The notes under the pieces were generated by a model that did not search any database, had not been told where the DNA came from, and saw only the letters and a list, made by a program, of their open reading frames with translations. 64,000 nucleotides of DNA. Source: a virus. Position numbers and translations under genes: made by a program. The stretch spans positions 1 through 64,000 of the IMG/VR virus record IMGVR_UViG_3300020160_000289; one strand, written 5' to 3'. Of this stretch, positions 4,923 to 58,372 are shown in pieces; position 1 is the first letter of the stretch, and each line of letters begins with the position of its first letter.

Positions 4923-4936
4923 ATTATTATTTAATG

Positions 4937-4964: not shown

Positions 4965-4981
4965 GGTTATACCATTTTAAA

Positions 4982-20761: not shown

Positions 20762-28282
<7,521 letters not shown>

Positions 28283-32000: not shown

Positions 32001-34619
32001 TCTGTATGTTGCTGTGCTAATGACCGCGCTAGGATTATAGTGGAATAATAAACCTCGATCAAATCCGTCGTTTATTAAGATATCAGAATTGTCTGGGTTA
32101 GTACCTAAATCTATTACAGGGTCTGCGATAGAAGTCTGAGTACTGTTCACTATTGTGGTCGTACCTTTAACAGTTAGGTTACCAACAACAGTAGCACTTC
32201 CACCCACATAGATATCTTTGCCAATACCTACGCCACCGTTAACAACAATAGCACCGGTGGTGGTCGATACAGCATTATCCATGCTGGTAGCAAACAACTG
32301 ATTAGTAAAGTTTAAACTGCCGTTTACCTGTAGATCGCTTTCGATTGTGGTCAATGACCCCGATGGATCTAATACAAGATTACCGCTAATTGTTTGAACT
32401 CTGTTTGACGAGAATAATAATGAACCAACCTGAATACTTGTTGGCTGAAGCACTGACGCATTAACGCCGTCACTGATTGTTAAACTTGATAACGGTCCTA
32501 ATCTAAAGTTGGCCGTTCCAAAATCCACGTTGCCTGAACGCTGATTAATACGGAACTGATCGCCGACACGGAAATCTCCAAGTTGATCAACTGTTTGATA
32601 GTAAACTTTTGCGCCGTTTAGTTTGACAATTTCATTATCTTGTACAGTTAGTGTCGGATCGTTGGTAAAATCTTTTCCTGAGCCAATGAAGCTCATGTTA
32701 AACGCAATGGCTTTTATGTCAATACCTTCACCGTCGGCATAGATACCATAATTTCCGTAGCAGGCTGCGCTGCCGATACATCTTAACTCACCACCAAACT
32801 GTCTGTAGTCTGCTAGAGTAATCTGAAGGGCGCTGGCAACAACTGTGGCTGTATAAGAAGCAGTTGTTGAATAGATATTTTGTGCGCCCTGCCCATCATC
32901 TTTAAAATCTATACTGGTAGTGGCTCCATCTGCGTGGATCAATATTGTAGTATAAACATCAGAATTATAAGCAGTAGTGCTAGGAGTAAACGTGGTGGTG
33001 TTTCTACAAATGTTACTAACACGGATTTCATCCATGTAACCCTTTAACGATACACTAGGTACTACTCCGTTACCACCAATTTCTAAAGCATCGCTGTTAG
33101 TGATACTGGCTGTTGCTGTGGTAGTTCCTTCTAGAACACCGTTAACAAACAATCTGTTGGTGTTAAACGCATCTCGAGACATTTGCACATGATACCAACT
33201 GCCTGCGCTCAATGCTGTAGTTGCTGTGAATAGGATAGTACCGTGTTGGCCGACTAGCTTATTGTCGGCTCCAATGTACATACCAAAGGTAGTCGAAGGT
33301 GCCGACCCTTTGTTAAACAGTTGTTGTTTAGCATTAATGGAATCTAAATAGACCCAAGATTCTAACGTGTAGGCGTTTAGGCCGTACTGTAAATCACTGT
33401 CACTAACAATGTTTAATAAGTCGCCGTTGGTTGTAAAATGTGCTGATGCTGTTCCAATTTTACGTTGGAAGCTGTCCATTGCTACATTACCGTAGACATT
33501 AATTACTTTGCCGCTACGATCTTGTGCTTCAACAAAGCCGCTGGCCTTGCCAGTTAGATATATGTATTCTGGAGTTACTTCATTAATAACGCCACTAGCC
33601 GCTACGGTACCTGTAGAGCTGATGTAATATAAATTATGCCCTACGGTGAATGTACCTGTGCTGTTGGCTAATCGTAATCGTGTACGGCCGGCGCCGCCCC
33701 AACCGGCTGATCCACTTTCGTAATGGATTCCTTTGTTGGCAAAATAGCTAAAGCCGTTTAGTAACTCTACTCGTGTACCGTTAGTAACATATACTGCGGT
33801 AGCATTTGGAGTAATGAATGTTGCTTCGTTGAATAAAAATGCCGCTTCAAGACTGGTAGAATCTACAAGAGCACCATCTAAGTATGCGCCGCCACCAGCA
33901 TCTGTGCTGTCGTAGCCATATGGATCGCCTGATACAGGATTAGATCCTTTTGTAATAACACTAACTCGTTCTACATAGGGACTACGTGTTGTAATTTTCA
34001 TTCCAGGATCGTATTCAAACGCATAACCTGGTTTATAAAATCCGCCAACTGTAAGGTCGCTGATTGTAGTTTCGCCATTTAATAAAAATGCTGAACTGGT
34101 ATTTGTTGCTGTAGTAGGTTTTACATATACTTGTCGAAGGCCTGCGCCACGAACACTGACTCCGGTAGGAACAGTTAGTGGAAATTGTTCAGTATAGGTA
34201 CCAGCAAGGATGTGTACAACTGCATTTTCTCCCACTGCGCCCGCAAGCTCTAAACCTTGCTTAATTGTTTGTACTGCGCTCTGAGGAATTTTTCCGTTAG
34301 CAGTATCATCACCTTGTTCGGAAACATAAAATACATGTTGGTCGGCTCGAAGGATATCCGTACCTTGTATTCTTAGTGTTCCGCCAATGTTTACATCACT
34401 GGAAAAGCCAACGCCGCCTAAAACTGTTAGGGCACCAGAAGTTGAATTCGTCGAAGAAGTAGTGGAAACAATGTTTAGCGGGCCGCCAAACGTAGATTGG
34501 CCAGATAGGCCTATGCCCCCTTTGATTATTAGGGCACCTGTAGTTGTGCTTGTCGATGTGGCAGTTAATCCGTTAAGGACTACCGCACCGTTTTTAACGA
34601 TGAAATCACTTTGTGCCAT
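29043..34619 (-). CDS. Large virion fibre/appendage protein (beta-helix, LamG-like domain, glycine-rich repeats)
   Basis: FYVSEQGDD..G beta-helix start; TLESWVY/WYHV/GYMDEIRVS LamG motifs; many TGAxxxxGGxGI repeats. Confidence 0.7.
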   Translation of the reverse strand: MAQSDFIVKNGAVVLNGLTATSTSTTTGALIIKGGIGLSGQSTFGGPLNIVSTTSSTNSTSGALTVLGGVGFSSDVNIGGTLRIQGTDILRADQHVFYVSEQGDDTANGKIPQSAVQTIKQGLELAGAVGENAVVHILAGTYTEQFPLTVPTGVSVRGAGLRQVYVKPTTATNTSSAFLLNGETTISDLTVGGFYKPGYAFEYDPGMKITTRSPYVERVSVITKGSNPVSGDPYGYDSTDAGGGAYLDGALVDSTSLEAAFLFNEATFITPNATAVYVTNGTRVELLNGFSYFANKGIHYESGSAGWGGAGRTRLRLANSTGTFTVGHNLYYISSTGTVAASGVINEVTPEYIYLTGKASGFVEAQDRSGKVINVYGNVAMDSFQRKIGTASAHFTTNGDLLNIVSDSDLQYGLNAYTLESWVYLDSINAKQQLFNKGSAPSTTFGMYIGADNKLVGQHGTILFTATTALSAGSWYHVQMSRDAFNTNRLFVNGVLEGTTTATASITNSDALEIGGNGVVPSVSLKGYMDEIRVSNICRNTTTFTPSTTAYNSDVYTTILIHADGATTSIDFKDDGQGAQNIYSTTASYTATVVASALQITLADYRQFGGELRCIGSAACYGNYGIYADGEGIDIKAIAFNMSFIGSGKDFTNDPTLTVQDNEIVKLNGAKVYYQTVDQLGDFRVGDQFRINQRSGNVDFGTANFRLGPLSSLTISDGVNASVLQPTSIQVGSLLFSSNRVQTISGNLVLDPSGSLTTIESDLQVNGSLNFTNQLFATSMDNAVSTTTGAIVVNGGVGIGKDIYVGGSATVVGNLTVKGTTTIVNSTQTSIADPVIDLGTNPDNSDILINDGFDRGLLFHYNPSAVISTATYRRSFFGMDNASETLIFKTGVATGPFSQITPSFLSLGTWGAARFGTLKLESTGDSSGSGSGSLISNGGAYFAKRVYSGANFYDVDGKLISIVTIPQYAVTTLTAGTDTAVNTSTGAVTVWTTSTLQTVTSRGSSTNVVVQFTNTSQATSTVTGAVTIVGGLGVGGDIYGANLYSDGSLVVTQGSIGSLGITALYAGTDTSVSSQTGQVYVWNNSTLQTVTGRGFTTTNAINITNATSSTSTTTGALTVAGGIGVTGDIWAKDIYSNGVKTLTTETDTLQLVTQRGATTDRAITFSNTSQATINGSQFAVQLSGGLYVAKRTYVTGEVTVGDGGVDSRSPLNVNGNYRLQSWNDSTGGLLDLYFTGTNSTGYFSLNVNSALGLALGPNEVIRVQQGGFGSNFVGINVTTATAQLEVGGDIKANNIYANGSLVITNATLGTYGVTSINTASGGGISINTSTGNVIIQSIDDLTAVTSRGNSTTNSIIIGGLSIPQGNATIGNTLDVLLTSNLNTVNVSGILNVTATTASISTSTGAVIIAGGAGIAGNVFAGALYDQSNRVVTSVTPVGGTGISIRSGAVTVGTATSFTIDNTGVIAIQGSTYIGVNSGTGIVTITNLGVQTLTAGADLSVTSNTGTITISNTSTLQSVTNRGSTTNNAIRITNATASTATTNGALVVTGGVGIGGALNVNGNAVINGSLQVFGSQTFVNSTQTYITDPVIELGAGANDTLLGINDGYDRGLVLHYNTTSTLNTAYDNHAFLGMDNATQKLVYKTNVYPGGVENYPAAFSNTGTWGSAKFGSLELVNSTSATSTLTGAITIIGGAGIGGTVYIGEKLFVAGYEVLTSGTGGVGSYVSFITAGTDTAISTSTGAVTVWNTSTLQSITNRGATTTNIVSFTNTGNSTSTVAGNAVQVSGGIGVTGDVYIQGDVYSQGGTPLYTPRVTVSTTPPTTSTNRLGDFWIDPSIGVEYQWIWSGTRYYWIQFTGAM

Positions 34620-39735: not shown

Positions 39736-42700
39736 TTATGCTCCTACCACCAAGATGAACGGTGTCATAGTTGCGTACAAACTCTTTTCAAAGGTTCGTC
39801 CAGCAAGTACACCAGTACTCTGACTAATAACTAATGTTGGTCCGATTCTAAAATCTCCGTTTTGGTCTGTTGATGTAAAGAACACCTTACCGTTATTTAA
39901 TTGAACCACTTCTTTGTTCTGTTGTGGGTCAGCAGTACCTACTTGAGGCAGAGCACCGTATTGTGTACCAGCACCTACATACTCAAATAAGTATCCAGAC
40001 GCTGAAATGTAACTCTGTTGATAGAATCTTACTGTAGCACCATCGATGAATAATGTTGGGTCTGTTACGTTTTGTTCTAGTCGAACAATGTGATACTGTC
40101 CTTTTCGATTAAAGTAACCGTTACCTGTGTTTACAGAATTATAATTTCCACCGTATATTAAATCGTATCCTACCGCATCAATGATTGCTCCAACATCTCG
40201 ATAACACTTATCTTTAGGATAATTTGGAGCGTCGGTAAACGCAGTATCAATATACGCAATAACTTCAGCTTTGATAAAATCTCTATTTGCCAATAGTAAG
40301 TCAAATGCGTTGATAACTTGAGTACTTGTACTTGCTACTTGACTAATTGGTTGTTTTGCTGGTGCTACTCCGGGACCATTGTTAATAATATTTGTAATAT
40401 TATCTATTTTATCTTGTACTAAGGAAACTTCGATACTAGTTCCAGTTGACGCAGATAATACTTGCGGAACTTTAAATTGGTAAGTGTTATCTAATGATGT
40501 TCCGGTAATAATATTACCGACTATGGTCTTAATATAGTCATACGCGGCAGTTGTTTGAGGAATTTGATCGTCAATGGCAGTATCAGCGGCATTAAATCCG
40601 TAGTAGTATACGCCGCTGGTAATACTTTGCCTGTTGCCGCCGTGTAATAGATCAAAACTTAATGAATCGACTATGTACCCAACATCTCTATAACAAATTT
40701 CTCTATCGTAACTAAACTCTTGATTATCTAAATCTATACGAGCAATAACTTCATCTTGAATAAATGCTTTATTAGCTCTTAATATATCGTAACTTGCTAG
40801 TATATTGGTGCTAGTTGAAACTACTCCGTTTGGAACAATTAAGTCAGTTACTCCAGTAGTTCCACCTGTCAATATTGACAGAATTAAATCAACATTATTT
40901 TGTACTGTTTGAGAAATCTTAACAGTACCCGTAGATAAATTTAACACTTGTGCTGTAGAAGTTGTAGCATCTACCGGTTCGTTGACTATGACTTTGCCTA
41001 CTAATTCTTTAATATATCTTATAGCATTTGTAGTTGTTGTTAGTTGTGAAATTATTTCTCCAGTATAGGCATCTTGGTTCCAGTACTGTAATCCGGCAAA
41101 CGTGCTTTCAGTTGTACCTTCGTACAACAAATCAAAAGCAATACTATCGATAATTAAACCAGTGTCTCTCTTACATTTTGTTTTATCATATAAAAATCCA
41201 GTGTTGTAAGTGTTATTAATATAGGCAATAGTTTCTGCTCTAATAAAATCTCTATTAGCATTTAATAGTTTAACAGCGTTGACAGTAGAAGTGCTGGTGC
41301 TTGCTGTTACAGAAATTGATTCTTTAACCGTAACTTCGTCTGGACCGCGCTCAATAATATTATTAATTAAATTAACATTATTCTTAACTATTTGTGCTTC
41401 GACTGTTGTTCCAGTCTGTGTACTAATAACCTGAGTGATTAATGTTTGTTGTGGGTCCGTAATTAAAGTTCCCGTAACAATATTTTCAACAATACTTTCA
41501 ATGAAATTATAAGCACTGGTAGTCTGTGGAATTTCTTTAGGTATTGCTGTGTCTTCTCCGTTATATCCGTAATAGTATACACCGCTTTGAACAGCTTGTT
41601 TGTTACCACCGTAGAGTAAATCAACGCTTACGCTGTCGATCATATAACCTATATCTCGGAAACATTTTTCTTTGTCGTAAACAAACCCTGTAAAATTACT
41701 GTTAATATAAGAAACAATTTCGTCTTGAATAAATGTTCTATTGGCTAACAATAAATCAAAAGCATAAGTTGAGTTAATGTCACTGCTCGCAGTTAAACTA
41801 ATAGAAGTTAATGTTCCGGCAATCGCAGGTCCATTGTTGATAATATTTGTGATTTTATCAACCTTTGCTTTGGCCTTTGTTATTGTAGTACTATTAGCAG
41901 GCAACATATAAGTTATCTGATTTGTAGTATTTCCTGCGCTAGGAATAATTTCAACTCCGCTGATAATATTACCAAGTATGTCTTTTAGTCGATTATAAGC
42001 GGCTGTAGTTTGGGGAATTTCATTTAAAATAGCTGTAGACGTACTAATATATCCGTAATACAACACTCCGCTCTGAATACTCTGCTTATTGCCGCCGTGT
42101 AGTAGATCAAATGCCACACTGTCAATCATGTATCCTGCGTCTCTTTGGCATTTAGCAGAGTCGTAAGTAAATCCACTTGTCTTAGTAGTTTCAACATAGG
42201 CAATAACTTCAGCTATTAGATATTCTTTGTTAGAAAGTAACAAATTATAAGCATAGTTTGTATTTGTAGAAGAACGTCTTTTTCCGTTAGGAACAATAAT
42301 ATCAGTGACTCCGTTAGTTCCGGTGTTTAAAATATCAATAATAAAACCAAAGTTATTTCCAACAACAGCCGATTCGTTTGATGTTGCCACTAATGTTGAA
42401 GTAGTTTGTGTAACGGTACTTTGATATCTTGTGCCGCTCTGATTATTAACTACAACTTTTTGCGCCAATGAGCTAAGGTATATAATAGCGTTAGTAGTAG
42501 TTGTTATTTCGTTGGCAATATTTCCAACATAACTATTTTGATTCCAATATTGGATTCCGGCAAATGTACTTTGACTATCGTTAGTTGACGGATATAATAG
42601 ATCAAACGCAATACTGTCAACAATTAATCCTGTATCTCTCAAACACTTGGCCTGATCATATACAAAGTTAGATGTTTGATCAACATAGGCAACAACTTCA

Positions 42701-45700
42701 TGTTGTAGATATTCCTTATTTGCCTGAAGTAAAGTATATGCCGAAATTGTTGAAGTGGACGTACTCGCAGTTATTCCGTTTGGTACAATTATGTCTGTTA
42801 CGCCTTCGGTACCGTTTTCAAGAATAGTTAAGATTACATCAAAATCCTTCCCTACATTGGCAGCAACAATTGATGTGGAACTAGTTATTGTACTAGTCAC
42901 TTGAGTAACAGTACTTTGATATCTATATCCAGATGTATTATTACGAACAACTTGTTGTGCTAGAGACTTTAAGTAACTAATTGCTCTAGTTGTAGTGGTT
43001 TCTTCACCAGGAATAACACTTGCGTTTTGGTTCCAATATTGAAGGCCGGCAAATGTACTCTGGCTTGTTCCTTGGAATAATAAATCCTGTGCTAGAGAAT
43101 CAACGATCAGTCCTGTATCTCGACTGCACTTAGCAGGATCGTAACTAAATTTACTTGGCCATAGATCGTCAACAAATGCTACAGTTTCTTCTTGGATAAA
43201 TCTTCTATTCTTATCAAGCAACTTTTTAGCATTTAATATATTGATGTTAGGGTCAACATATTGTCTAGGTCGAGTAATTTCTGGACTACTAGTAGATCCG
43301 TCTTTGATTATATTAGCGATAATGTCAAATTTAGATCCTAGAGATCCGACAGCATCGATTCCGCCAGTTAAAGTTGAATCAAATATCTGTGAATACGCAG
43401 TTTGATACGTTCCAAGATCGTTGGTAGAATTAATATAGGCAATTACTTCTTCTTGGATAAATGATCGATTAGCTTGTAAGGCAAGATACGCATTATAATC
43501 TTCCGGAATTAACGATTCTGTTAAAGAAACAGGAACCTTAGCGTTGGCCGCATTGGGTCCGTTGTTAATAATATCAACAATAAGATCAATGCTATCTTGT
43601 AATTTTGTTACTTCTGTTATTGTGGCAGTAGAAATATTTGTTATTTGAGGAACAAAAGTCTGATAAGTAGAAGTTGTTATTCCTTGTACTACATACGGAA
43701 TTAATTGTCGGATATAATTATAGGCCGCAGTAGTTGCTGGGATCTCATTAGCTATCGCAGTTGAAGAAGAATTGTATCCGTAGTAACTAACGCCACTTTG
43801 AATAGCCTGTCTGTTACTCGACACATCTCCGTACGGATGTAGCAAATCAAACGCTACGCTGTCAATCATATACCCTACGTCTCGATAGCAAAGGCCGGCA
43901 TCGTAAGTAAATCCAGAAGTTTTTGTTGTTTCAACATAGGCAATCGCTTCTTCTTGGATATATGTTTTATTACCTAATAATAAATTATAAGCCTTTGTTC
44001 TTTCTTCTGTTCCTGATATTTCACCGTTAGGAATAATTTTATCAGTTACTCCTGCAACTCCATCAACGATGATATCTAATATTACCTCAAAATCATTTCC
44101 TACGATTGTAGCGGCTACGATCGAAGCAGGTGGCGGAGAAATATTTTGTGTAACAGTAGATTGGTAACGAGTTCCTGAGCTAACGCTACCTGTTATATTT
44201 TGAACAATTTCTTGTGCTAACTGCTTAACATACCTAATGGCATTAGTAGTAGTGGTCAGTTCGTTGGCAATGGTGCCAATATACTGATCTTGATTCCAGT
44301 ATTGAAGACCGCTAAAATTACTCTGACTTAGTTCAGTTGTTGGGTATAACAGATCTACGGCAATAGAGTCAATTATTAGTCCAGTGTCTCTCTTACATTT
44401 TGCCTGATTATATACTAATCCGGCGACCGGTTCATTTTGTATTACTCGAAGAGCGAGATTTTTAGCATAGCTAACTGCTAAAGATGTGGTTGTTTCTTGG
44501 CCAGGAACAAGTGTCACTTGATTTGTAACAGTTGACGACAATGACTCGTCGACTATACTTGACAATACTGTATAATATGCGTTACCACAGAAATATAAAT
44601 TAAAAAACGCATCGTAATTTAAGTCTTGATACCCGGATACTATTGGACGGTCTAAAGTTATCGATCTAAAATTGACATCAATTACCTGTGTACCAGTAGT
44701 GATATAAGGAATGCCTGTATCTGGATTTACAGAGTTTCCAAAAACATCAGTCACATAAAGTGTATGACCGACTGCGACGTCAGTTACATCGATATCATTG
44801 ATAGTGTAACTGTTAGTAACAAGGGTGTTAGTGTTAATTGTGGCAATCAGGTATCCTGGATATCCTGCTGAATTAACGTAAGGAACCCTATCACCATTGT
44901 AATCAAGGTAAGTATCAGGGGCAACAACTTCCATAACTTGCCCGATGTGTGGACGATCTCTATCGTTAGGAATAAAGACTTCCATTCTTTGTTTGTTTGG
45001 CCAAAAACCTAATGGGTAGAAATCACTGTTAGGTACGTTTGTAGGATACGCAGGGTTTCTAACAAATCCTGCGAATGCCAATTTGCCTAAACCTTTTGCC
45101 GTTAAACAAGTATCACCAAAGTTTGCGTTAGAGTTAGTAATAGAAGCAATGCCGCCGTTCTCAACAATAACAGCCTGACTACACATAATAGTAAACACAG
45201 AAACTAACTGTGCGTATCCGTTATTAATAATGTGGACTCCGATACCGCCTTGTGTAACTTGCGTGAACGCATCAAACACAAAAGATTGAATAGGTGATCG
45301 TATACTCGGAGCGTTCCCGTCAACTAATGCGCCACCCCCAGACCCTATAGGATCAAGTCTACGATCAGCATACTTGTCTCCGTCATTTACAGTCCATGCT
45401 GTGGGTATATCAGCATCTAAGAACGGATATACCGAAGTTTCTCCAAAATAGATTGTTGCGTTATCGCTAGGACTTACAGTAGGAGAACTTAATGTAATTA
45501 AGTATACATTATCTGACACGGTTGTGATCGCAGTTATTGTAGACGCATTATTAACGCCATTGGGACTTAGACCAGTTGGATATATTAATCCGTAAAGATC
45601 TTCTTTAGGATTTGGAACACTGCTTTCGCCGCTTTGGATGATTGATGAAATTAAATTAAAACTTTCAATTATTCTAGTATTAACAACTTGACCGTTGTCT

Positions 45701-47070
45701 AAATTTAAATTGATAACCTGGAAGGTAGAAGTATCAAATAAATTAGTTACAGTATTATTGACAATAATATCTACTGATAAATCTCTAATATAATTAATTG
45801 CCGCGATTGTTTGAAATTGTTCTCCGGAAATTAAACTGGTATTCCCGGACCAATAGGCTAGCCCTGCTTCGATACTTCTTTTGTTCCCGCCGAATCGAGC
45901 GTCACCAGCAACCGCATCAACGATATATCCTACATCGCGATAACACTTAACTTGATTATATACTAAATCTGGAAATTGATCTTCTACGAATGCAACAGCT
46001 TGTGTTTGTAGAAATATCCTATTCTTTTCTAGTAACAACTGAGCATTTCTATATCCTTCGTTGGCAGCATCATTGACTGCCATACCTACAGAAATAGTAC
46101 CTGTATATACAGAAACTACAATTTGATTTTGATCTGCTGTCCAGGTTGATGTTCCTGCGGCTAACGGAATTTGTATTGTTTGATTTGGGTTAAACATTGT
46201 CCCGTCTTTCAACCACGGACCACTTTGATTGGTACAGTTTTGAATGTACGGAGAATGATATAAATCTATAGGATTTTCTAAGTTAGGAGGAAACGCACAC
46301 ATGTATGCGCCAGTTGTGTATGTACCTTGACCTCCGGGAGCATATCTTTCAACACTTCCTCTACGTAGATTACGCATTTGCATTTGTGCAATGTATACAC
46401 CAGAATTAACATGGAATAAATCTAAATCTTTATTCAATGGTTCAACAAAAGTAGTTCTTAAGTCATTACCAACCACCGAAGTGTATGCCTTTAGAGGTAT
46501 TGGGTTATCTTCAAAATAAGTACCTGCGGCAACTCTAATTGTTGTGCCTTCGGTATACAATGGACTACGAACAGCTCCACTGATTGTTCTACATGCTCTT
46601 GTAGAATCAAGCGCAGATCCGTCATTATTATCATTTCCGTTTGGAGTAACATATAGGGTCAACGGATTAATTGGAAATGTTCCTAGAGGAATACCGCTTA
46701 CAGTAAAATCCCCGGTTACCGAACCGTCGCCAGTTACTGCTAAATCTTGTTCAATGTCTACATCACCTGCTATTTGAACTTTCTGAAATGGTGTTAGTAT
46801 AATATTTGAGTTAGAGTCTACACCGTTAATTTCAATTTCAGTGCCATTTTGCGTGGATCTAATAACCTGACTTGTGAAACTTAGTTTACCTAAAGTATTT
46901 GTAAAAGTAGCTTTACCACTATCGTCTGTTTGTAACGTATAACCAGTATTAGACTCCGGAGCAACGCCGAGCGCAGGCTGAGCATTATCTACTCCTAGAT
47001 AATCCCATCTATCTGGTTTTAAATTCTCTGGGCGAGGAACCGGTTTTCTATTACTTAATAAACGTGGCAT
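39736..47070 (-). CDS. Giant virion protein: beta-helix scaffold with 10 CxRDxG helical (phycobiliprotein-like) repeats
   Basis: LYVTPNGND..DG beta-helix start, SPYIQNCT, AQLVSVFT; repeats spaced about 480-510 nt. Confidence 0.7.
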   Translation of the reverse strand: MPRLLSNRKPVPRPENLKPDRWDYLGVDNAQPALGVAPESNTGYTLQTDDSGKATFTNTLGKLSFTSQVIRSTQNGTEIEINGVDSNSNIILTPFQKVQIAGDVDIEQDLAVTGDGSVTGDFTVSGIPLGTFPINPLTLYVTPNGNDNNDGSALDSTRACRTISGAVRSPLYTEGTTIRVAAGTYFEDNPIPLKAYTSVVGNDLRTTFVEPLNKDLDLFHVNSGVYIAQMQMRNLRRGSVERYAPGGQGTYTTGAYMCAFPPNLENPIDLYHSPYIQNCTNQSGPWLKDGTMFNPNQTIQIPLAAGTSTWTADQNQIVVSVYTGTISVGMAVNDAANEGYRNAQLLLEKNRIFLQTQAVAFVEDQFPDLVYNQVKCYRDVGYIVDAVAGDARFGGNKRSIEAGLAYWSGNTSLISGEQFQTIAAINYIRDLSVDIIVNNTVTNLFDTSTFQVINLNLDNGQVVNTRIIESFNLISSIIQSGESSVPNPKEDLYGLIYPTGLSPNGVNNASTITAITTVSDNVYLITLSSPTVSPSDNATIYFGETSVYPFLDADIPTAWTVNDGDKYADRRLDPIGSGGGALVDGNAPSIRSPIQSFVFDAFTQVTQGGIGVHIINNGYAQLVSVFTIMCSQAVIVENGGIASITNSNANFGDTCLTAKGLGKLAFAGFVRNPAYPTNVPNSDFYPLGFWPNKQRMEVFIPNDRDRPHIGQVMEVVAPDTYLDYNGDRVPYVNSAGYPGYLIATINTNTLVTNSYTINDIDVTDVAVGHTLYVTDVFGNSVNPDTGIPYITTGTQVIDVNFRSITLDRPIVSGYQDLNYDAFFNLYFCGNAYYTVLSSIVDESLSSTVTNQVTLVPGQETTTSLAVSYAKNLALRVIQNEPVAGLVYNQAKCKRDTGLIIDSIAVDLLYPTTELSQSNFSGLQYWNQDQYIGTIANELTTTTNAIRYVKQLAQEIVQNITGSVSSGTRYQSTVTQNISPPPASIVAATIVGNDFEVILDIIVDGVAGVTDKIIPNGEISGTEERTKAYNLLLGNKTYIQEEAIAYVETTKTSGFTYDAGLCYRDVGYMIDSVAFDLLHPYGDVSSNRQAIQSGVSYYGYNSSSTAIANEIPATTAAYNYIRQLIPYVVQGITTSTYQTFVPQITNISTATITEVTKLQDSIDLIVDIINNGPNAANAKVPVSLTESLIPEDYNAYLALQANRSFIQEEVIAYINSTNDLGTYQTAYSQIFDSTLTGGIDAVGSLGSKFDIIANIIKDGSTSSPEITRPRQYVDPNINILNAKKLLDKNRRFIQEETVAFVDDLWPSKFSYDPAKCSRDTGLIVDSLAQDLLFQGTSQSTFAGLQYWNQNASVIPGEETTTTRAISYLKSLAQQVVRNNTSGYRYQSTVTQVTSTITSSTSIVAANVGKDFDVILTILENGTEGVTDIIVPNGITASTSTSTISAYTLLQANKEYLQHEVVAYVDQTSNFVYDQAKCLRDTGLIVDSIAFDLLYPSTNDSQSTFAGIQYWNQNSYVGNIANEITTTTNAIIYLSSLAQKVVVNNQSGTRYQSTVTQTTSTLVATSNESAVVGNNFGFIIDILNTGTNGVTDIIVPNGKRRSSTNTNYAYNLLLSNKEYLIAEVIAYVETTKTSGFTYDSAKCQRDAGYMIDSVAFDLLHGGNKQSIQSGVLYYGYISTSTAILNEIPQTTAAYNRLKDILGNIISGVEIIPSAGNTTNQITYMLPANSTTITKAKAKVDKITNIINNGPAIAGTLTSISLTASSDINSTYAFDLLLANRTFIQDEIVSYINSNFTGFVYDKEKCFRDIGYMIDSVSVDLLYGGNKQAVQSGVYYYGYNGEDTAIPKEIPQTTSAYNFIESIVENIVTGTLITDPQQTLITQVISTQTGTTVEAQIVKNNVNLINNIIERGPDEVTVKESISVTASTSTSTVNAVKLLNANRDFIRAETIAYINNTYNTGFLYDKTKCKRDTGLIIDSIAFDLLYEGTTESTFAGLQYWNQDAYTGEIISQLTTTTNAIRYIKELVGKVIVNEPVDATTSTAQVLNLSTGTVKISQTVQNNVDLILSILTGGTTGVTDLIVPNGVVSTSTNILASYDILRANKAFIQDEVIARIDLDNQEFSYDREICYRDVGYIVDSLSFDLLHGGNRQSITSGVYYYGFNAADTAIDDQIPQTTAAYDYIKTIVGNIITGTSLDNTYQFKVPQVLSASTGTSIEVSLVQDKIDNITNIINNGPGVAPAKQPISQVASTSTQVINAFDLLLANRDFIKAEVIAYIDTAFTDAPNYPKDKCYRDVGAIIDAVGYDLIYGGNYNSVNTGNGYFNRKGQYHIVRLEQNVTDPTLFIDGATVRFYQQSYISASGYLFEYVGAGTQYGALPQVGTADPQQNKEVVQLNNGKVFFTSTDQNGDFRIGPTLVISQSTGVLAGRTFEKSLYATMTPFILVVGA

Positions 47071-47091
47071 CGTTTTCTCTTATGTTTTATT

Positions 47092-47478
47092 TTAATTGTT
47101 TGCTGTTTCTAACACGCTTAATACAAGTTTACACGAGCCGGCTGCGTCTGAATAAGCTCTGATACTATCTTGACTTTCGAGAATCATCTTGCCAGTAATT
47201 AACGATGCTGAGTCATTGGGCGGAATTGGGAAGTTCATTACCAACTCCGATGTTGTATTTGGCTCTTGTGCGTTATTACCTTGGGCGTCAGGAAGAACTC
47301 TAAATCTTCTATGATGACTGAAAGTAACAGTATGTGTAGCTTGACTATCAACGTTGGCCACCTGTGCCATCAAGATAATAGAAGTAACTCCGATTGGTGC
47401 TACATAAACAGTAGCAGTAGTATTAGTATCTAAAATCTTTGTCTTTGTCTTAAACGTGTTTAATGGAATTAATGCCAT
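47092..47478 (-). CDS. Small structural protein
   Basis: 128 aa, GGAG SD; GKMILESQDSIRA motif shared with 54917..55234. Confidence 0.65.
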   Translation of the reverse strand: MALIPLNTFKTKTKILDTNTTATVYVAPIGVTSIILMAQVANVDSQATHTVTFSHHRRFRVLPDAQGNNAQEPNTTSELVMNFPIPPNDSASLITGKMILESQDSIRAYSDAAGSCKLVLSVLETANN

Positions 47479-47489
47479 GTATTTCTCCT

Positions 47490-50400
47490 TTATTCGCTGC
47501 CGCCCGCTTCAACAGCTAAGATGAATGGTGTCATCTGGGCAAACAAGCTCTTTTCAAATGTCCTGCCAGACAACACACCTGTTGCCTGACTAATCACTAA
47601 TGTTGGACCGATACGGAAATCTCCGTTTTGGTCTGTTGAAGTAAAGAACACCTTACCATTATTTAACTGAACAACTTCTTTGGTCTGTTCGGGGTCAACT
47701 CTTCCTACTTGAGGCAAGGCACCGTATTGTGTTCCTGCTCCGCAATATTCAAACAAGTAGCCTGACGCACTTTGATAACTTCGTTGATAGAAGTTAACTG
47801 TACTACCGTCAACAAATAACAATTGATTTCTTACGTTATCTTCCAAAGTAGCGATATGGTAAGTACCTTCTCTTGTGTAATATGTCTTAGCTGCCTCGAC
47901 ACTCCTAAAGTTGCCCCCAGTTTGTAAATCCGCTATGAGAGCATCGATCATTAAGCCGGCATCTCTTCGACATTTTTGTTTATTGTATACAAACGTTTGA
48001 GGGAACGTTTCATTGATATAGGCAATCGTTTCTGCTTTGATAAATTCTTTATTAGCAAGTAATAACGCAAATGCTTTTAATCTATTCGGATTAGCATTTT
48101 GTACAAGACCAACTGGTACCTTTTCGCCTGCTTCGTCTGGGCCGTTTCTAATAATATCAGTTATAATATCAACCTTTGACTGAAGTACTGCAGCTTCTGC
48201 TAAAGTGGCAGGGTTTAAATTAGTTACCTGAGGTACTGCTGTTTGGAAATTTGGAGATGTTGGAGTACCAGTTACAATATCTCCAACAATGGCTTTGATA
48301 AAATTATAGGCAGCTTCTGTTTGTGGAATTTGATTATCAATCGCAGAGTCGGCAGGGTTAAATCCGTAGTAGTAAACTCCTGACATGATACTTTGTCTGT
48401 TACCGCCATGAAGCATATCAAAGCAAACTGAGTCTACAATATATCCAACATCTCGGCGACACTTAGTTTCATCGTAGCTAAAACCGCCGCCGTAAGTTGA
48501 AGTTATGTAGTTAATAACTTGTGTTTTGTAAGATTCTTTGCTTGCTTGGACGTTGGCTACTGCTGTCAATGCTGTAAAGTCAGTAGTTTTAAAACCGTTT
48601 GGAACGATATCATCTGATATTCCAACAATTCCGTTATCTAATATGTCAAGTATGTTGTCAAAACGTTGGCCAGCAACTACACCTGGTGCGCCGCCAGCAG
48701 TTGATACTACTAACGATTTTAGATAAGCAATCGCGCCCCTAGTCTGTACGATTTGATCAATAATATCTCCAGTATAGCTGTCTTGATTCCAATATTGTAA
48801 TCCAGCAAATGTACTTTGAGAAATGCTATCGTAAAGCATGTCAATAGCAATACTGTCAACAATCAACCCTGTATCTCTTGAACACTTGGCTTCATCGTAA
48901 GTAAATCCTCCGTAGATAGCATCTACATAGCTTACAGTTTCGTTCATTAGAAAGATTTTATTCTTTTTAAGCAAAGCAATAGCATCATTTTTTCCAGCAA
49001 CTGCAGTTCCTGTAGTCTTAACTTGCGGTGCGGCCTGTGGTCCAGCTAGTATTACTCCTGTAATAATACCTAGACTATCACTAATAAATCCAGTTGAATT
49101 ATTTCCTGACGGAAAACCATTGTCAATAGTTTGAGCTACACTAGTGCTGTATGTAGCAGTCATTAAAATATTTGATACTACATTGTTAGATATGTCTCTT
49201 AGATAGTTAATAGCGTCAATTGTTTCGGTCTCTTGGCCTAATATTTTACTTTGACCAGTTGGATACGGACTAGTAACTGTTTTGCTACTTAAAATGTTAT
49301 AGTATGCGTTTCCACAGCAATAGATATTAAAATAATTTCCGTTGCCGTATTGGCCGCCACCTTGTAGAATAGGGTTACTCAGTGTAATTGATTGATAATT
49401 AACTTCGGTGATTGTCGTACCTGTTGTTAAGTAAGCAACTCCGTCACCGTTATCATCTGCTTCATATCCAAACTGATCTCTTATATAAACAGTCTGTCCT
49501 ACTGAAACTCCCGTTACATCAATTCCATCAACTGTATAACTGCTGGTCGTTAAACTAGATGTGTTGACAATGGCTGTTAAAAATCCCGGAAATCCTTGTT
49601 CGTTAATGTACGGAACAGTTATTCCGTCGTAGTTTACATATTCGTCTGGAGGAACAACTTCCATCACTAAACTAATGTGTGGTCTATTGGCAGGATCTGG
49701 CACAAACACACATACCTGCTGGCTAGTAGGGAAATAGCCTTGTGGATAATATTCGTTAGCTTCAAAGCTATTTGTTAACTCGTTATAGGCAACGTTGGCC
49801 GGATTGTAAATTGTTCCTCCAAATTTACGTCTTCCATACCCTCGAGATAAAAGACATAAGTCACCAAAGTTATTATTTGAGTTGGTAATAGAAGCAATAC
49901 CGCCGGCATCAGTTTCAACAGCAATGTTACAGAAAATTGTAAACACAGATACTAACTGAGCATAGCCTTCATTGATAATATGAATTCCTCTTCCACCTTG
50001 GGTAATTTGTGTAAACGCATCAAACACAAAAGATTGAATTGGACTTCTAGTAGATGGCGCAAATCCGTCGACGAGAGCACCGCCACCGGAGCCGTTAGGA
50101 TCAATTCTTCTATCAGCAAATCCGTCAAGACTCCATTCGCCTGGCATATTTTTATCTTCTTCTGGGTATACTGTCGTATAACCAATATACATAATATCAT
50201 TTGTTGCTGACGCAATCGTTGAAGTACTTAGATGTAGAATGAACTGAGTTAATGTGGAATTTGTACTAGGAGGTGCGAAAGGTGGACCATTTTCTATAAT
50301 AGTAGCGATAGCATCAAAATTGTTTCTTACTAAATCTCTAGCAACATAACCGCCATTCAATTGACTGTTAATAAGTTGCGGTACAACGATTGTAGCAGTA

Positions 50401-53400
50401 GTTGAGCTTGAACCAGGGACTGTAATTTGTTTGGATGTTTGGTATAAAGAAGTTACTGGATTATTAGCAATAACTTCTAATGCTAGATTTTTAAAATATA
50501 AGATAGCGCCAGCAGTTTCTTTTGTTTGTCCTTCGATTACACTAACCGCATTATCCCAGTAGGCATATCCTGCTTCTAAAGATTTAATATTTGATCGATT
50601 AACAATATCTTGAGCAACAGCATCCACGATTAACCCAACATCTCTAAAACATTTTTCTTCATTGTACTTGAATACGTAAGGGTTGATAAATGTAGTATTA
50701 ACAAACTCAACTACTTCGGCAACAATAAAATCTCTGTTTGCTACTAGTAGATCATATGCTCGAAGAACTGATGTTGATGTGCTAATATCTAAACCTATCG
50801 ATGATAGCTCCGGAGCAGCCGATGGTCCGTATTTTATAATTTTTCTAATTAAGTCAATGTTATCGCCAACCGCTCGAGACTCATCAGCAGTTGCTGCCAG
50901 ATAGTCTGTATTTTGTAAAATATTAGGCTGATATGTTCTTGTAGCAGTTATACGTTGAACAACTTTGTCAACTAACGCTTTCATGTACTTGTAAGCCGCC
51001 ATGGTCTGCGGTATTTCATTTATAAGAACTGTGCTGGTGGAGTTATATCCGTAATAAGAAACTCCTGCTTGTACGCTTTGTCTATTGCCGCCGCGTAATA
51101 AATCCATAGTAACGCTGTTTACTATGTACCCAGCATCTCTTCTACATTTTGTTTGATCGTATACAAAACCGCTTGGTTTATTTGCTTCAACATACGCCAC
51201 TACCTCATCTTGAATAAATGACTTATTATTTTTTAAAGTTTGAACAGCATATAATACATCAACATCTGTAGATACAGCACCGTTTGGTACGATTGTATCA
51301 GTGACCCCTGCTGTACCAACTGTTAAAATATTCAATATTACATCATATTTGTCAACAAGATCAGACACGACTGTGACACTAGTAGCCGTTACTGAGGTAT
51401 CTTGTATAGCTGTGCTTAGTTTGCTAACAGTAAAATTTTGTACTATTTGTTCTGATATCTGTTTAGCATAATTAAAAGCATTTCTTGTAATAGTCTCTTC
51501 GCCAGGTATCTCAGTTGTGCCTTGATTCCAATATTGTAGTCCGGCAAAAGTTGATTGGCTTGATCCTCCATATACTAGATCTAACGTTAAGCCGTCTAAA
51601 ATTAATCCAGTATCTCGTTCGCAATGTGATTCATTGTAAACAAAATCTAATTTTGTAAAAGTAGTATCAACATAGGCCACTACTTCGTGTTGTAAGAATT
51701 CTTTATTAGCTACTAAAAGATCGTAGCTGTTAACAATTTCCGATATTGTGCTAGGATTAACACTATTAGAAACTAAAGATGAAGTTTGCTTTCCTTGAAT
51801 TCGGCGATTGATTAATACAATATTCCTGCTAACAAGTTCAACGGCAGCATTTGTGCCGGTAGTTAAATTGACAATCTGTGTAACTGTTGATTGATAACTG
51901 TCTAATAGTTGATTTTTTAATATTACATCTCTAACGATTGAACCTAGATAAGTTATTGCTGAAACTGTTTCGTCTATTTGGTTCGCTATTACTGCTCCGT
52001 TAGAGTAACTTGCGCCAGCGGCAGTTGATTGCTCATTGCCACCATATAGCAAGTCAGTTGCTAAGGCATCGATTAATAGTCCAGTATCTCTAAAACATTT
52101 TGATCTATCGTAGGTAAAACTTGGAATTGATTGTCCTACGTAAGTTTCATTTACAAATGATACTACTTCCGCTTGTAAGAATCCTCTATTAGCATTTAAC
52201 AATGCCGCGGCATTTTCGTAACCTGGTTGATTTTCTAGAATGTCTACTAGTAAACTAATCGAGTTATCAATTCCGCCTACTACTACTGAGCCGCCATTAG
52301 ATGCTGTATTAAATGATTGAAATGCTATCGTACCTGTAGTTTTTGTAACAGTTACATTAGATACGATATCTTTAGCAATAACTCCAATCCTATTAAACGC
52401 TGCAATAGTTGCAGTAGTTTCGTTGCCTAAAATTTGAACATTGTTTACATAATAAGATTTACCAGCAGTAACAATACTTTCGTTGCCGCCTAAAATAACA
52501 TCATTAACAAGAGCATCTACAACATAACCAACGTCTCTTCTACATTTTACTCTGTCATAAACAAGATCTGAATAAAAGAAATCTACATATGAAACAACTT
52601 CGTCTTGTATAAAAGATTTATTATCTACTAATAATCCTTTAGCAGTTTGAAAATTTGGATCAGGATTTTCAATAGCGTCAATAGTGGCGACTAGTATATC
52701 TGGATCAATTAAAATACCTTTTCCGTTAATAGACATTCCTATCTCGGGCATCTGACCTGAAATTTCAGGGAGTATGTTTACAGTTATAACCGTGGTGTTG
52801 ATTACGTATGTGGATGTAGCAACTACTAATGGAACTTGAACTGTTTGATTTGGCACAAACATTGTTCCATCAAACAGCCACGGACCTGATTGATTAGTAC
52901 AGTTTTGAATATAGGGACTGTGAAATACGTCAATTGGATTATCTAGCTTAGGTGGAAAGGCAACACAATACGCACCGGTTGTGTATGTGCCAGCACCGCC
53001 CGGCACGTAGCGAGTAACTTCTCCTCGACGAAGGTCTCGCATGGTCATCCCAGTAATATAAACACCGCTGTTTACATGGAACAAATCAACTGCGTTGTTT
53101 AATGGAAATACAAAAACTCCCCTTAAGCTGTCTCCATATACAGATGTGTAAGGCAACAATTCAATAGGATTGTCTTCGTAATATTTTCCAGGAGCAACTT
53201 TAATAACAGTACCTTGTTTGTAATAAGGACTTTTAGTTGCTCCACTAATCGTACGGCAAGCACGGCTTGAGTCCATGGCTCTACCATCATTTTCGTCACT
53301 ACCGTTTTCGTTTACGTATAGTATATTATTAACAACAGGGGCAGTTCCAATTGGATTTCCGCCGTAGACTCGAATGTCTCCGTTAATTTGTACGCTCTTG

Positions 53401-54062
53401 TTTAGGGTTCTTTCTAGTAGAGGTATATCTGGAAAGAATTGAACGTTAGTATATGTACCAACAGTATCTACTTGCTTAGTAAAAATATTTTCTAAGTAAG
53501 CACTCTTCCAGTAAGAAGTAGTATTACCGATACTGTAATCAGAAATAATATTAGTATTGGTAATAAATTCTGTTACTGTAAATCCGTTAGTAACTGTGGT
53601 AACAAATGTCCCGGAACTTAGATAGGGTAATAGATCAGTATCAATCTCTCCAAGTAGACTAATCGTGTCGCTTGATGTAGTATCGCCTAATTTAATATTT
53701 CCTTGGGCAAAGAAATTTCCTGTAGCAAATACATCACCGTCAACTCGTAGGTCAGAGTTGATAAATGTATCATCTGTACCGCCTGGTGTAATATTAAATG
53801 GACCGTAGATGGTCGAAACTGTGCTACTAGATGTTGAGCTTTCTATGGTTATTAAACCGATAGTAGCGGTATTAAGGATTATTTTGGCAGCTCTAATTGT
53901 GCCTGTGTTAACATCTAACTCGTATGCCGGAGCAGATTGTCTAATACCAATTCGGCCGTTTACAACGTCAACATATAGCAAATCATCGTCAATTGCTATG
54001 TCTATGCCGTCTCGTCGCAAGTTGCTTGCGAGTAACGGACCAGTAATGCGACCAATGGCCAT
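47490..54062 (-). CDS. Giant virion protein paralogous to 39736..47070, with 8 CxRDxG repeats
   Basis: Same scaffold motifs and near-identical C-terminus (ASGYLFEY..EVVQLNNGKVFFTSTDQNGDFRIG). Confidence 0.7.
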   Translation of the reverse strand: MAIGRITGPLLASNLRRDGIDIAIDDDLLYVDVVNGRIGIRQSAPAYELDVNTGTIRAAKIILNTATIGLITIESSTSSSTVSTIYGPFNITPGGTDDTFINSDLRVDGDVFATGNFFAQGNIKLGDTTSSDTISLLGEIDTDLLPYLSSGTFVTTVTNGFTVTEFITNTNIISDYSIGNTTSYWKSAYLENIFTKQVDTVGTYTNVQFFPDIPLLERTLNKSVQINGDIRVYGGNPIGTAPVVNNILYVNENGSDENDGRAMDSSRACRTISGATKSPYYKQGTVIKVAPGKYYEDNPIELLPYTSVYGDSLRGVFVFPLNNAVDLFHVNSGVYITGMTMRDLRRGEVTRYVPGGAGTYTTGAYCVAFPPKLDNPIDVFHSPYIQNCTNQSGPWLFDGTMFVPNQTVQVPLVVATSTYVINTTVITVNILPEISGQMPEIGMSINGKGILIDPDILVATIDAIENPDPNFQTAKGLLVDNKSFIQDEVVSYVDFFYSDLVYDRVKCRRDVGYVVDALVNDVILGGNESIVTAGKSYYVNNVQILGNETTATIAAFNRIGVIAKDIVSNVTVTKTTGTIAFQSFNTASNGGSVVVGGIDNSISLLVDILENQPGYENAAALLNANRGFLQAEVVSFVNETYVGQSIPSFTYDRSKCFRDTGLLIDALATDLLYGGNEQSTAAGASYSNGAVIANQIDETVSAITYLGSIVRDVILKNQLLDSYQSTVTQIVNLTTGTNAAVELVSRNIVLINRRIQGKQTSSLVSNSVNPSTISEIVNSYDLLVANKEFLQHEVVAYVDTTFTKLDFVYNESHCERDTGLILDGLTLDLVYGGSSQSTFAGLQYWNQGTTEIPGEETITRNAFNYAKQISEQIVQNFTVSKLSTAIQDTSVTATSVTVVSDLVDKYDVILNILTVGTAGVTDTIVPNGAVSTDVDVLYAVQTLKNNKSFIQDEVVAYVEANKPSGFVYDQTKCRRDAGYIVNSVTMDLLRGGNRQSVQAGVSYYGYNSTSTVLINEIPQTMAAYKYMKALVDKVVQRITATRTYQPNILQNTDYLAATADESRAVGDNIDLIRKIIKYGPSAAPELSSIGLDISTSTSVLRAYDLLVANRDFIVAEVVEFVNTTFINPYVFKYNEEKCFRDVGLIVDAVAQDIVNRSNIKSLEAGYAYWDNAVSVIEGQTKETAGAILYFKNLALEVIANNPVTSLYQTSKQITVPGSSSTTATIVVPQLINSQLNGGYVARDLVRNNFDAIATIIENGPPFAPPSTNSTLTQFILHLSTSTIASATNDIMYIGYTTVYPEEDKNMPGEWSLDGFADRRIDPNGSGGGALVDGFAPSTRSPIQSFVFDAFTQITQGGRGIHIINEGYAQLVSVFTIFCNIAVETDAGGIASITNSNNNFGDLCLLSRGYGRRKFGGTIYNPANVAYNELTNSFEANEYYPQGYFPTSQQVCVFVPDPANRPHISLVMEVVPPDEYVNYDGITVPYINEQGFPGFLTAIVNTSSLTTSSYTVDGIDVTGVSVGQTVYIRDQFGYEADDNGDGVAYLTTGTTITEVNYQSITLSNPILQGGGQYGNGNYFNIYCCGNAYYNILSSKTVTSPYPTGQSKILGQETETIDAINYLRDISNNVVSNILMTATYSTSVAQTIDNGFPSGNNSTGFISDSLGIITGVILAGPQAAPQVKTTGTAVAGKNDAIALLKKNKIFLMNETVSYVDAIYGGFTYDEAKCSRDTGLIVDSIAIDMLYDSISQSTFAGLQYWNQDSYTGDIIDQIVQTRGAIAYLKSLVVSTAGGAPGVVAGQRFDNILDILDNGIVGISDDIVPNGFKTTDFTALTAVANVQASKESYKTQVINYITSTYGGGFSYDETKCRRDVGYIVDSVCFDMLHGGNRQSIMSGVYYYGFNPADSAIDNQIPQTEAAYNFIKAIVGDIVTGTPTSPNFQTAVPQVTNLNPATLAEAAVLQSKVDIITDIIRNGPDEAGEKVPVGLVQNANPNRLKAFALLLANKEFIKAETIAYINETFPQTFVYNKQKCRRDAGLMIDALIADLQTGGNFRSVEAAKTYYTREGTYHIATLEDNVRNQLLFVDGSTVNFYQRSYQSASGYLFEYCGAGTQYGALPQVGRVDPEQTKEVVQLNNGKVFFTSTDQNGDFRIGPTLVISQATGVLSGRTFEKSLFAQMTPFILAVEAGGSE

Positions 54063-54916: not shown

Positions 54917-55234
54917 TTAACCTACTAGAACATAGCTACATGTGCAGGTAATAATTGTATTTTGACTTGCCTGAGCTTGCACGCTGTCACCGTCTTGTAA
55001 AATAAATCTTTCTGTGTCCATGCTAAAAGTTTCTCCGGCCGGAACAGAAATTTGATTTAAAATTATATTTGCGTCACCTGCGGCAATAGCAGACGGTACC
55101 ATCCATACGCTCACTGTTGCGTCAACAGTTAAACTTGAATTACAAAATATTAAGCAGGTAACAGCGTTTTCTCCGTTGGCTACAAAGACTTCTGTTTTTT
55201 GTGATGCGCTTAATTGCGAGTTAGTGATTGCCAT
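54917..55234 (-). CDS. Small structural protein
   Basis: 105 aa; ERFILQDGDSVQA motif. Confidence 0.6.
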   Translation of the reverse strand: MAITNSQLSASQKTEVFVANGENAVTCLIFCNSSLTVDATVSVWMVPSAIAAGDANIILNQISVPAGETFSMDTERFILQDGDSVQAQASQNTIITCTCSYVLVG

Positions 55235-57193: not shown

Positions 57194-58372
57194 TTAACGG
57201 AAAGAAACGTTTGCGCTTGTGATAGCAACTTTGCCTAGGTAGTCAGCTGCATTACCTAGAGAAGAAGCAGTGTTTGTCAACTCAACATAGCCGTAGCGTG
57301 TTAAGAAGCCAACTACTGGTTCGAATGTTGCTGGGTCTAGAACAACACCAGAACTCATTAGAGGAATGTAAGGGCAATAGAATGCCGCTGCATCAGCCTC
57401 GGAAGGTCCTTTGTAACCAATTAGACATTGGTTGTTGTCGTCTGTATCGCTTAGATAAGCATCAACATAGATTCTCATGCTGTTATTCAATGTACCAACA
57501 AACTTAGTGTTTGTAGGAGCTTCGAATGTACCTTCTGTTGTACGAGCAAATGCGCTTGTAGTAGCAGATTGTAGGATTGTCAAAGCCTGGTTAGAAATAA
57601 CTGCCCAGTTAGCAGAACCACGACGTGTACGCTGAGCGATCAAGTTAGCAACACGGTTGATCTGAACTGCCAATGCGGCATGCTCGTCACCAACGAATGT
57701 AGCTGTACCAGATACAGCGGCTTGGTCATAAGTTTGTTCAACTGTGCCTAGAGCACGTAAAGAACCTAGAATTTCTTGGTCGATTTCAGCAGTAATTTCT
57801 TGTGCTAAAGCGGCCATGATTTCTGCTTCGATGTCAATACCTTGCATAGCTTGAGCATCTTGTGCTGCCTCGAAAGTCCAACGAGCGCTTAGTTTACGAG
57901 ACTTAGCTTCGACTGGTGCTTTCAAGATTTGAATGCTCATACGCTTGCCTGGTTGGCCTTCTAAGATAGAAGTTGTTTGAGCTTTCGGTGTTGCATTGTT
58001 GTTACCGGAGTAACCAGCTGCAATCTTGAATGGGCTTAGTGCCTCATCTCCAGCTACCACGGAATCGCCGCTTGATGTATCAGCGTAACGAACACGTAGA
58101 GTATGGATTTGTGCTACTGGGCCTGTCATTGGTTGAACACCAACGATTTCGTTAGCAATAACGGTTGGCATAACACGACGAATAACTGGAAGAATAACGC
58201 GGTTTAAAGTTGCGATATTACCAGTGCTTGTAGCACCTGCGGATGCAGATTCTGCCAAGTACTTGCGTGTGTTTTCCAAGCAAACTGCCATTGAAGACTT
58301 ACGTGTACCGGATAGGCCTTCAAGCAGAGCTTCTTTGGTCTCTGACCATCTTTCATTTAATAATTGTGACAT
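57194..58372 (-). CDS. gp23: Major capsid protein (gp23)
   Basis: GVQPMTGP, AKSRKLSARWTFEAAQD, FYCPYIPL, TRYG motifs. Confidence 0.96.
   Translation of the reverse strand: MSQLLNERWSETKEALLEGLSGTRKSSMAVCLENTRKYLAESASAGATSTGNIATLNRVILPVIRRVMPTVIANEIVGVQPMTGPVAQIHTLRVRYADTSSGDSVVAGDEALSPFKIAAGYSGNNNATPKAQTTSILEGQPGKRMSIQILKAPVEAKSRKLSARWTFEAAQDAQAMQGIDIEAEIMAALAQEITAEIDQEILGSLRALGTVEQTYDQAAVSGTATFVGDEHAALAVQINRVANLIAQRTRRGSANWAVISNQALTILQSATTSAFARTTEGTFEAPTNTKFVGTLNNSMRIYVDAYLSDTDDNNQCLIGYKGPSEADAAAFYCPYIPLMSSGVVLDPATFEPVVGFLTRYGYVELTNTASSLGNAADYLGKVAITSANVSFR

Follow-up and report, generated by a model that had tools for sequence, protein, structure and literature searches.

Tandem globin-fold repeats related to phycobiliproteins in two predicted giant virion proteins of a freshwater jumbo T4-like phage

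Two giant genes with a repeated C-x-R-D-x-G motif

The DNA considered here (the window) comprises positions 1 to 64,000 of the IMG/VR virus record IMGVR_UViG_3300020160_000289, which is 91.5 kb long in full. It contains two giant open reading frames (ORFs) that are neighbours on the minus strand, ORF A (39736-47070, 2444 amino acids, aa) and ORF B (47490-54062, 2190 aa), and both encode arrays of a phycobiliprotein-like repeat. The repeats are marked by the motif C-x-R-D-x-G, found ten times in ORF A (Cys codons at 45943, 44395, 43888, 43126, 42643, 42148, 41662, 41173, 40693 and 40204) and eight times in ORF B (52542, 52095, 51621, 51144, 50649, 48882, 48459 and 47970). Every Cys codon listed in an initial annotation made from the sequence alone was thus reproduced. 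The window's other four reading frames are free of the motif, a search of the whole record found no extra C.RD in any long ORF, and a rough composition estimate predicts well under one chance match to C.RD.G. Tandem copies lie 141-169 aa apart. Together the two proteins have 34 Cys residues, 18 of them in the motif.

When the 16 full repeats are aligned, the mean column identity is 37%, with Y41, C46, R48, D49, G51, D60, G73, Y76, T93 and A96 invariant. Two subtypes, RDTGL...SQSTFAGLQYWNQ and RDvGY...GGN, are denoted T and V; along ORF A they run V; T V; T T V V T V V, and along ORF B V T T V V; T V V. A profile scan of both proteins added four partial pieces, all lacking the Cys.

The first repeat of ORF A (A1, V-type; aa 336-489, 45604..46065, profile E 9e-51) is set between two non-repeat scaffold parts. 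A Cys-less partial piece covering profile positions 76-109 (aa 810-884, 44419..44643) is followed by A2 (T-type; aa 882-1012, 44035..44427), which is without the first helices, and by A3 (V-type; aa 1021-1179, 43534..44010). Next comes a degenerate repeat (aa 1189-1266, 43273..43506) that has only the first and last helices and no Cys helix, and then the unbroken series of six full repeats A4-A9 (aa 1274-2240, 40351..43251), in the order T, T, V, V, T, V. The last repeat, A10 (aa 2248-2343, 40042..40329), ends after profile position 85 and keeps CxRD. ORF B is a paralogue of ORF A by ORF and motif scan and by its PHROG matches. It holds a five-repeat array, B1-B5 (aa 467-1235, 50358..52664; V, T, T, V, V), a Cys-less partial piece covering profile positions 77-153 (aa 1584-1682, 49017..49313), and B6-B8 (aa 1688-2081, 47820..49001; T, V, V), of which B8 is shortened like A10. 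In both proteins the final repeat therefore stops after ~85 profile positions and is fused to a conserved C-terminal fibre domain matching phrog_3442 and phrog_17885 (~100 aa at 39739..40041, aa 2344-2441, in ORF A; 47493..47819 in ORF B). By tblastn, cyanophage tail-fibre proteins have this domain too. All of these features are on the minus strand. Taken together with the structural models, each giant protein is predicted to consist of a non-repeat scaffold and the conserved C-terminal fibre domain, with 10 or 8 multiplied ~160-aa, six-helix globin-fold domains.

Predicted fold of the repeat

A single repeat, A9 (modelled as 40321-40830, minus strand), was submitted to AlphaFold2 with an alignment of the 16 in-window repeats as the only alignment input. 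The resulting model has six helices, a predicted local distance difference test score (pLDDT) of 86 and a predicted template-modelling score (pTM) of 0.83. In a Foldseek search of the PDB, a phycobiliprotein occupied every top row (template-modelling score, TM, ~0.6 over ~155 columns), with marginal E-values from 2e-3. VIA-align, a structure search independent of Foldseek, gave phycoerythrin beta as the best match (5aqd_M; Z 15.0, root-mean-square deviation, rmsd, 2.6, 142 residues aligned), followed by a far-red allophycocyanin, three ApcE chains, an ApcD-like chain and phycoerythrin alpha; none of the top 8 is anything other than a phycobiliprotein or ApcE. The next group, at Z about 11 (11.1), consists of heme globin sensors and photocobilin globin domains. 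A model of the pair A8-A9 (40339-41316, minus strand) has a pLDDT of 81 and a pTM of 0.79, and both subtypes in it match phycobiliproteins first (Z 16.1 and 13.4), with Z 16.1, rmsd 2.4 and 145 aligned residues against 5aqd_M. Cyanophage fibre proteins, modelled independently in BFVD, match at TM 0.7-0.88. The globin/phycobiliprotein fold proposed in the initial annotation was thus recovered from an excised repeat by both aligners. The X-Y hairpin is not clearly present: sequence alignments begin at phycobiliprotein residue ~36-40 and the model has 6 helices, although some structural alignments span chain residues 1-184.

Homology to phycobiliproteins

Pfam returned nothing useful for the whole giant proteins or for single repeats, and PF00502, the family named for comparison in the initial annotation, matched neither the record at E<=10 nor any of the 16 repeats. 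When a HMMER profile built from the 16 repeats was run on all PDB sequences, however, phycocyanin alpha ranked first (E 0.0057), with an alignment that runs through ...YD..KC.RDvG....GG. For a profile-profile comparison, 80 cyanobacterial loci found with a short cpcA motif pattern provided 138 distinct alpha and beta subunits, and the family search described below provided 671 full-length repeats. The two profiles aligned in hhalign over 95 columns (probability 91%, P 9e-7). In this register the repeat Cys, Arg and Asp (C46/R48/D49) take the places of Cys84/Arg86/Asp87, and the GG pairs coincide. Both the consensus and the match to the helix-E region of phycocyanin alpha, as given in the initial annotation, were recovered by HMMER and hhalign. 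Reversed or column-shuffled controls gave P 0.16-0.72.

The resemblance could in principle be convergent, with an unrelated helical bundle sharing a short motif and a general globin-like arrangement by chance. Helical bundles often reach middling Z scores, PF00502 does not score, and masking the four motif columns weakens the hhalign result to P 0.014, showing that the sequence signal comes mostly from the chromophore-site motif. However, two structure aligners put phycobiliproteins first over many entries, the register is the same over 94-101 columns even when masked, the beta subunits alone give P 4.5e-5 over 101 columns, and the controls are flat. Chance similarity is accordingly a very improbable explanation. 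The fold and the distant homology to the bilin-binding globin clade, as first read from the sequence, are well supported and very probably correct: the repeat is a divergent member of the clade that includes the phycobiliproteins and the bilin biosynthesis-associated globins (BBAGs), shorter than a phycobiliprotein, and it retains the helix-E site K-C-x-R-D-x-G...GG.

The presence of two subtypes suggested alpha/beta mimics, a candidate that was rejected. Their order does not alternate, and T and V resemble each other far more strongly (hhalign P 3e-57) than they resemble alpha or beta subunits, both preferring alpha. The subtypes therefore reflect a duplication inside the phage family.

Family size and constraint on the C-R-D triad

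An exhaustive HMMER search of 1.84 billion representatives (cut-off E<=1e-3) defined a family of 1433 representative proteins of up to 6382 aa, with 2 to 38 repeat copies per protein. All 11 free-standing single-domain matches lie on ~1-8 kb contigs and are probably fragments of giant genes, so a stand-alone form is without evidence. In the ESM Atlas, the matches were phage clusters without names only, all <0.8.

Conservation was assessed over ~1530 repeats from 150 representative proteins. C46 is kept in 95%, R48 in 96%, D49 in 98%, D60 in 100%, Y76 in 98%, T93 in 89%, Y41 in 84% and N19 in 80%. Arg and Asp are both present in 1433 of 1459 Cys-bearing repeats versus 33 of 71 Cys-less ones, an odds ratio of 63 that is not corrected for relatedness among the repeats. 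In Cys-less repeats the Cys is mostly replaced by F, Y or W, while D60 and Y76 are still conserved. The loss of C-R-D as a unit, with D60 and Y76 persisting, is as expected for a ligand site that has been abandoned in some copies.

The ligand need not be a bilin. The pocket might instead accommodate a different tetrapyrrole such as heme, a metal or redox-active ligand at the Cys, or a molecule from the host surface, in which case the domains would be receptor-binding units. The structures that rank next after phycobiliproteins are heme globin sensors and photocobilin globin domains, and fibre-type proteins could touch the cell. Against this, none of the 170 profile positions is dominated by His over the ~1530 repeats and no other axial-ligand residue is conserved, which makes the heme option of the initial annotation unlikely for want of a proximal His. 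Phycobiliproteins also score clearly above heme globins, conservation falls on the bilin triad, and 18 near-equivalent internal domains are unlikely to be all receptor binders. Such a ligand is quite improbable.

Phage affiliation and genomic setting

The window is a T4-like myovirus structural module with a gp32-like single-stranded DNA-binding protein, terminase, sheath, tube, baseplate wedge, major capsid protein and portal. Within it, the PHROGs matched by both giant proteins are of the tail-fibre, short-tail-fibre and virion-structural kinds (phrog_5342 at E 1e-95 to 1e-102, plus 4527, 17885 and 701), in agreement with their first description as virion proteins. The major capsid protein (57194-58372, minus strand) has jumbo-phage capsids as its nearest relatives: it is 68-71% identical to those of jumbo phages of Proteobacteria (PA5oct, Sinorhizobium Phosso, Vibrio 2.275.O and E. 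coli A4) and merely ~35-38% identical to cyanomyovirus capsids. Given this distance, the repeat domain must be common to very distant T4-like lineages. Near-identical DNA was found in freshwater and lake metagenomes from at least three studies. On these sequence grounds, the products of ORFs A and B are predicted to be virion proteins, of the tail fibre or associated with the baseplate, in a jumbo T4-like myovirus from fresh water. CheckV puts the completeness of the record at ~25%. A megablast against phage records matched nothing, and the window has no tRNAs.

A 128-aa ORF between the two giant genes (47092..47478, minus strand) matches phrog_1276, of unknown function, and is a candidate assembly factor; a 105-aa ORF upstream of ORF B (54917..55234, minus strand) is a weak second member of the same PHROG. 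Both could be fibre assembly factors. The possibility that the 128-aa ORF is a hidden CpeT was rejected, as it belongs to phrog_1276 and not to phrog_488 (BLASTP E 40). Two further giant ORFs are without the CxRD repeat. One (20762-28282, minus strand, 2506 aa) has collagen-like and tail-fibre PHROG matches. The other, of >2320 aa (L004 6590-13549; G000 84589-91548, plus strand), matches the virion structural phrog_10938 and runs past the end of the record.

Bilin genes in the record and its jumbo relatives

The initial annotation proposed looking for bilin genes in the rest of the genome. Neither heme oxygenase (HO), ferredoxin-dependent bilin reductase (FDBR), CpeT nor phycobiliprotein genes are present in the 91.5-kb record, but at ~25% completeness their lack there is uninformative. 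Among 13 long capsid relatives from IMG/VR, G001 alone is near-complete (328 kb, 92%); its capsid is 87% identical. One of its ORFs (3849 aa) holds 20 repeats, and its HO and FDBR genes adjoin each other, ~150 kb from that ORF. The same pair of genes, along with the repeats, is found in a second relative, G002 (61% complete). A search to widen the FDBR set, started from a single protein, yielded 3 loci only. CpeT, CpeS and psbA were found in none of the 13 relatives. The clade is therefore probably not one of cyanophages, and with no known lyase, bilin attachment in it would need autocatalysis or an unknown factor.

In G001 the HO and FDBR genes lie in the co-directional series HSP20-ClpS-HO-FDBR-CsgF-CsgG (L091, G001:C1:161040-167711, locus ~1536-5126). 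The curli secretion genes CsgF-CsgG beside them hint at a Gram-negative heterotrophic host. The late-promoter word TATAAATA was considered at this cluster and discarded: it matches once, 57 nt upstream of the HSP20 gene, versus 1.5 matches expected by chance.

Cultured phages and the link to CpeT

A tblastn search with two repeats found 182 of 50,697 cultured phage records, all of them cyanophages. Twenty complete phage genomes were then scanned with the repeat profile and with PF06206 (CpeT). Domain and CpeT are both present in 15 genomes (including P-HM1, P-HM2, S-PM2, S-CAM4, S-H9-1, Syn1 and Syn9) and both absent from five (P-SSM2, S-SM2, S-SSM7, Mosig and P-SSP7); no genome is discordant (Fisher 6e-5 over the 20 genomes, with kinship ignored). 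In S-CAM4, S-H9-1, S-PM2 and Syn1, cpeT lies directly upstream of a giant repeat gene.

In S-H9-1 (NC_070961.1), a stretch at 32008-32511 on the minus strand has a full-length CpeT match (E 4e-43) where RefSeq annotates no gene; it lies just upstream of a tRNA cluster and of the 3431-aa repeat-bearing virion gene. Several genes for 2-oxoglutarate (2OG)-Fe(II) oxygenases cluster beside giant fibre genes in S-CAM4 (L002, 21924-26585) and S-H9-1 (L220, 8696-9307 and 22914-24777), and such genes adjoin HO/FDBR in Mosig (L092, 1-3340). These clustered oxygenases may modify structural proteins.

Some of the same phages differ in their behaviour in the dark: P-HM1, P-HM2 and S-PM2 do not adsorb, while P-SSM2 and P-SSP7 do (PMC6628666). 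The three dark-non-adsorbing phages have the domain and the two dark-adsorbing ones are without it (n=5, P 0.1). This correspondence is only a lead and is subject to the same phylogenetic caveat as the CpeT link, set out below.

Comparison with known systems

The repeat shares with the phycobiliproteins (CpcA/B, ApcA/B, CpeA/B and the PB domain of ApcE; PF00502) a globin-type helical fold (Z 13-16), a unit of ~160 aa, and a helix-E K-C-x-R-D-x-G followed by a GG turn, aligned residue by residue. It differs from them in lying below the Pfam threshold at 12-17% identity, in having six helices instead of eight or nine and no evident X-Y hairpin of the kind used in alpha-beta pairing, and in its arrangement: the phage domains are joined head-to-tail, up to 38 in giant virion proteins, whereas phycobiliproteins are free in antenna discs.

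In the phycobiliproteins, and likewise in BBAG-1/-3, where attachment needs no lyase, CXRD is the bilin site (PMC10151467). The BBAGs, from heterotrophic bacteria, are phycobiliprotein paralogues outside photosynthesis (Rockwell, Martin and Lagarias 2023, PMC10151467). Their host genomes also encode HO and FDBR, as G001 and G002 do. Compared by description, however, BBAGs are small, free-standing and encoded beside bilin genes, and the phage domains are repeats in structural proteins.

Also close are the giant tail-fibre and gp7-like baseplate proteins of T4-like cyanophages (S-PM2 p091, S-CAM4 gp236, and those of Syn9 and P-HM2; PHROGs 5342, 4527 and 701), which have the same repeat and C-terminal fibre domain, with 2-10 repeat copies per genome in 15 of the 19 cultured myoviruses tested. 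In contrast to these, the phage of the window belongs to a jumbo capsid lineage, has many more copies per protein and comes from a clade without CpeT and psbA. No publication on phycobiliprotein-like domains in phage virion proteins was found.

Proposed function of the repeat arrays

The explanation that best combines these results is that the arrays bind bilins covalently, which is plausible but tentative. Late in infection, each domain would acquire a linear tetrapyrrole derived from host heme through phage HO and FDBR, whose genes were found in the nearest near-complete relatives. The bilin would form a thioether at the Cys, and the Arg and Asp would hold its propionate and pyrrole nitrogens. 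Attachment is proposed to be autocatalytic, as in BBAG-1/-3 and ApcE, since the jumbo clade is without a known lyase. In the mature fibre, the pigmented domains would line up as beads on a rigid chain. By a rough estimate, each virion would bear only tens to a few hundred bilins, too few for visible colour to be likely. In the weakest step of the proposal, the pigment would make the fibre light-responsive, with day/night gating of adsorption, or would photoprotect it. A light sensor in which covalent bilins on fibre or baseplate arrays gate phage adsorption is, taken by itself, rather unlikely.

Several results weigh against bilin binding. In a capsid tree, all four domain-negative myoviruses form one clade (support 97/95), so the domain-CpeT link amounts to one evolutionary event and is not independent support; the four phages with adjoining cpeT are likewise one clade (98/99). 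Pelagibacter phage Mosig, with the closest cultured FDBR, has HO and ferrochelatase genes that adjoin the neck genes, and it has no repeat. P-SSM2 carries pebS and pcyA (PMC2984593) and has no repeat domain by profile scan. With bilin genes and no domain in these two phages, phage bilin synthesis does not require the domain. To these points are added the bilin genes missing from the ~25%-complete record itself, the lack of a lyase in the jumbo clade, the failure of PF00502, the dependence of the sequence signal on the motif and the uncorrected relatedness behind the co-loss of the triad. The reading in the initial annotation is thus partly supported: it stands for the fold, the homology, the position of CxRD on the bilin site and the virion proteins, while its bilin attachment is tentative and its heme option unlikely.

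The main rival to covalent bilin binding is possible, though somewhat doubtful. It holds that the repeat is an apo structural module, a descendant of a bilin-binding globin that now acts only as a rigid helical spacer, making the fibre longer or stiffer, and would use the triad for folding or inter-domain packing. The pTM of the two-domain model suggests fixed packing of neighbours, and the copy number of 2-38 per protein is as for a length-setting module. Shortened and Cys-less pieces are tolerated, and the bilin genes of Mosig and P-SSM2, together with the want of a lyase or bilin gene in the record, also suit a pigment-free domain. However, structural needs hardly account for a single Cys that ~1500 divergent extracellular domains retain at 95%. 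The three triad residues also disappear jointly from copies in which the fold residues D60 and Y76 stay, as for a ligand site, and they form the exact chromophore triad of homologous families (PMC10151467).

Significance

The benefit of phage bilin genes has been called unclear (PMC2984593), and the same question was raised for non-cyanophage PcyA (PMC11480375). Light-sensitive receptors or tail fibres have been suggested for light-dependent adsorption (PMC6628666). Two questions would become directly testable with the present finding: why phages of Prochlorococcus and of heterotrophs without a phycobilisome carry HO, bilin reductases and CpeT, and how the adsorption of some cyanophages can depend on light independently of photosynthesis. 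A viral protein with the exact bilin-attachment site is a concrete candidate acceptor, and cultured phages are at hand. If the arrays were indeed light sensors, phage CpeT, and in some lineages HO and FDBR, would gain a viral substrate, and light-dependent cyanophage adsorption would be explained in a way that extends to phages of non-photosynthetic freshwater bacteria, such as that of the window. Even if pigment-free, the repeats constitute a large undescribed branch of the bilin-binding globins, with 1433 representative proteins, that bears on the origin of the phycobiliproteins.

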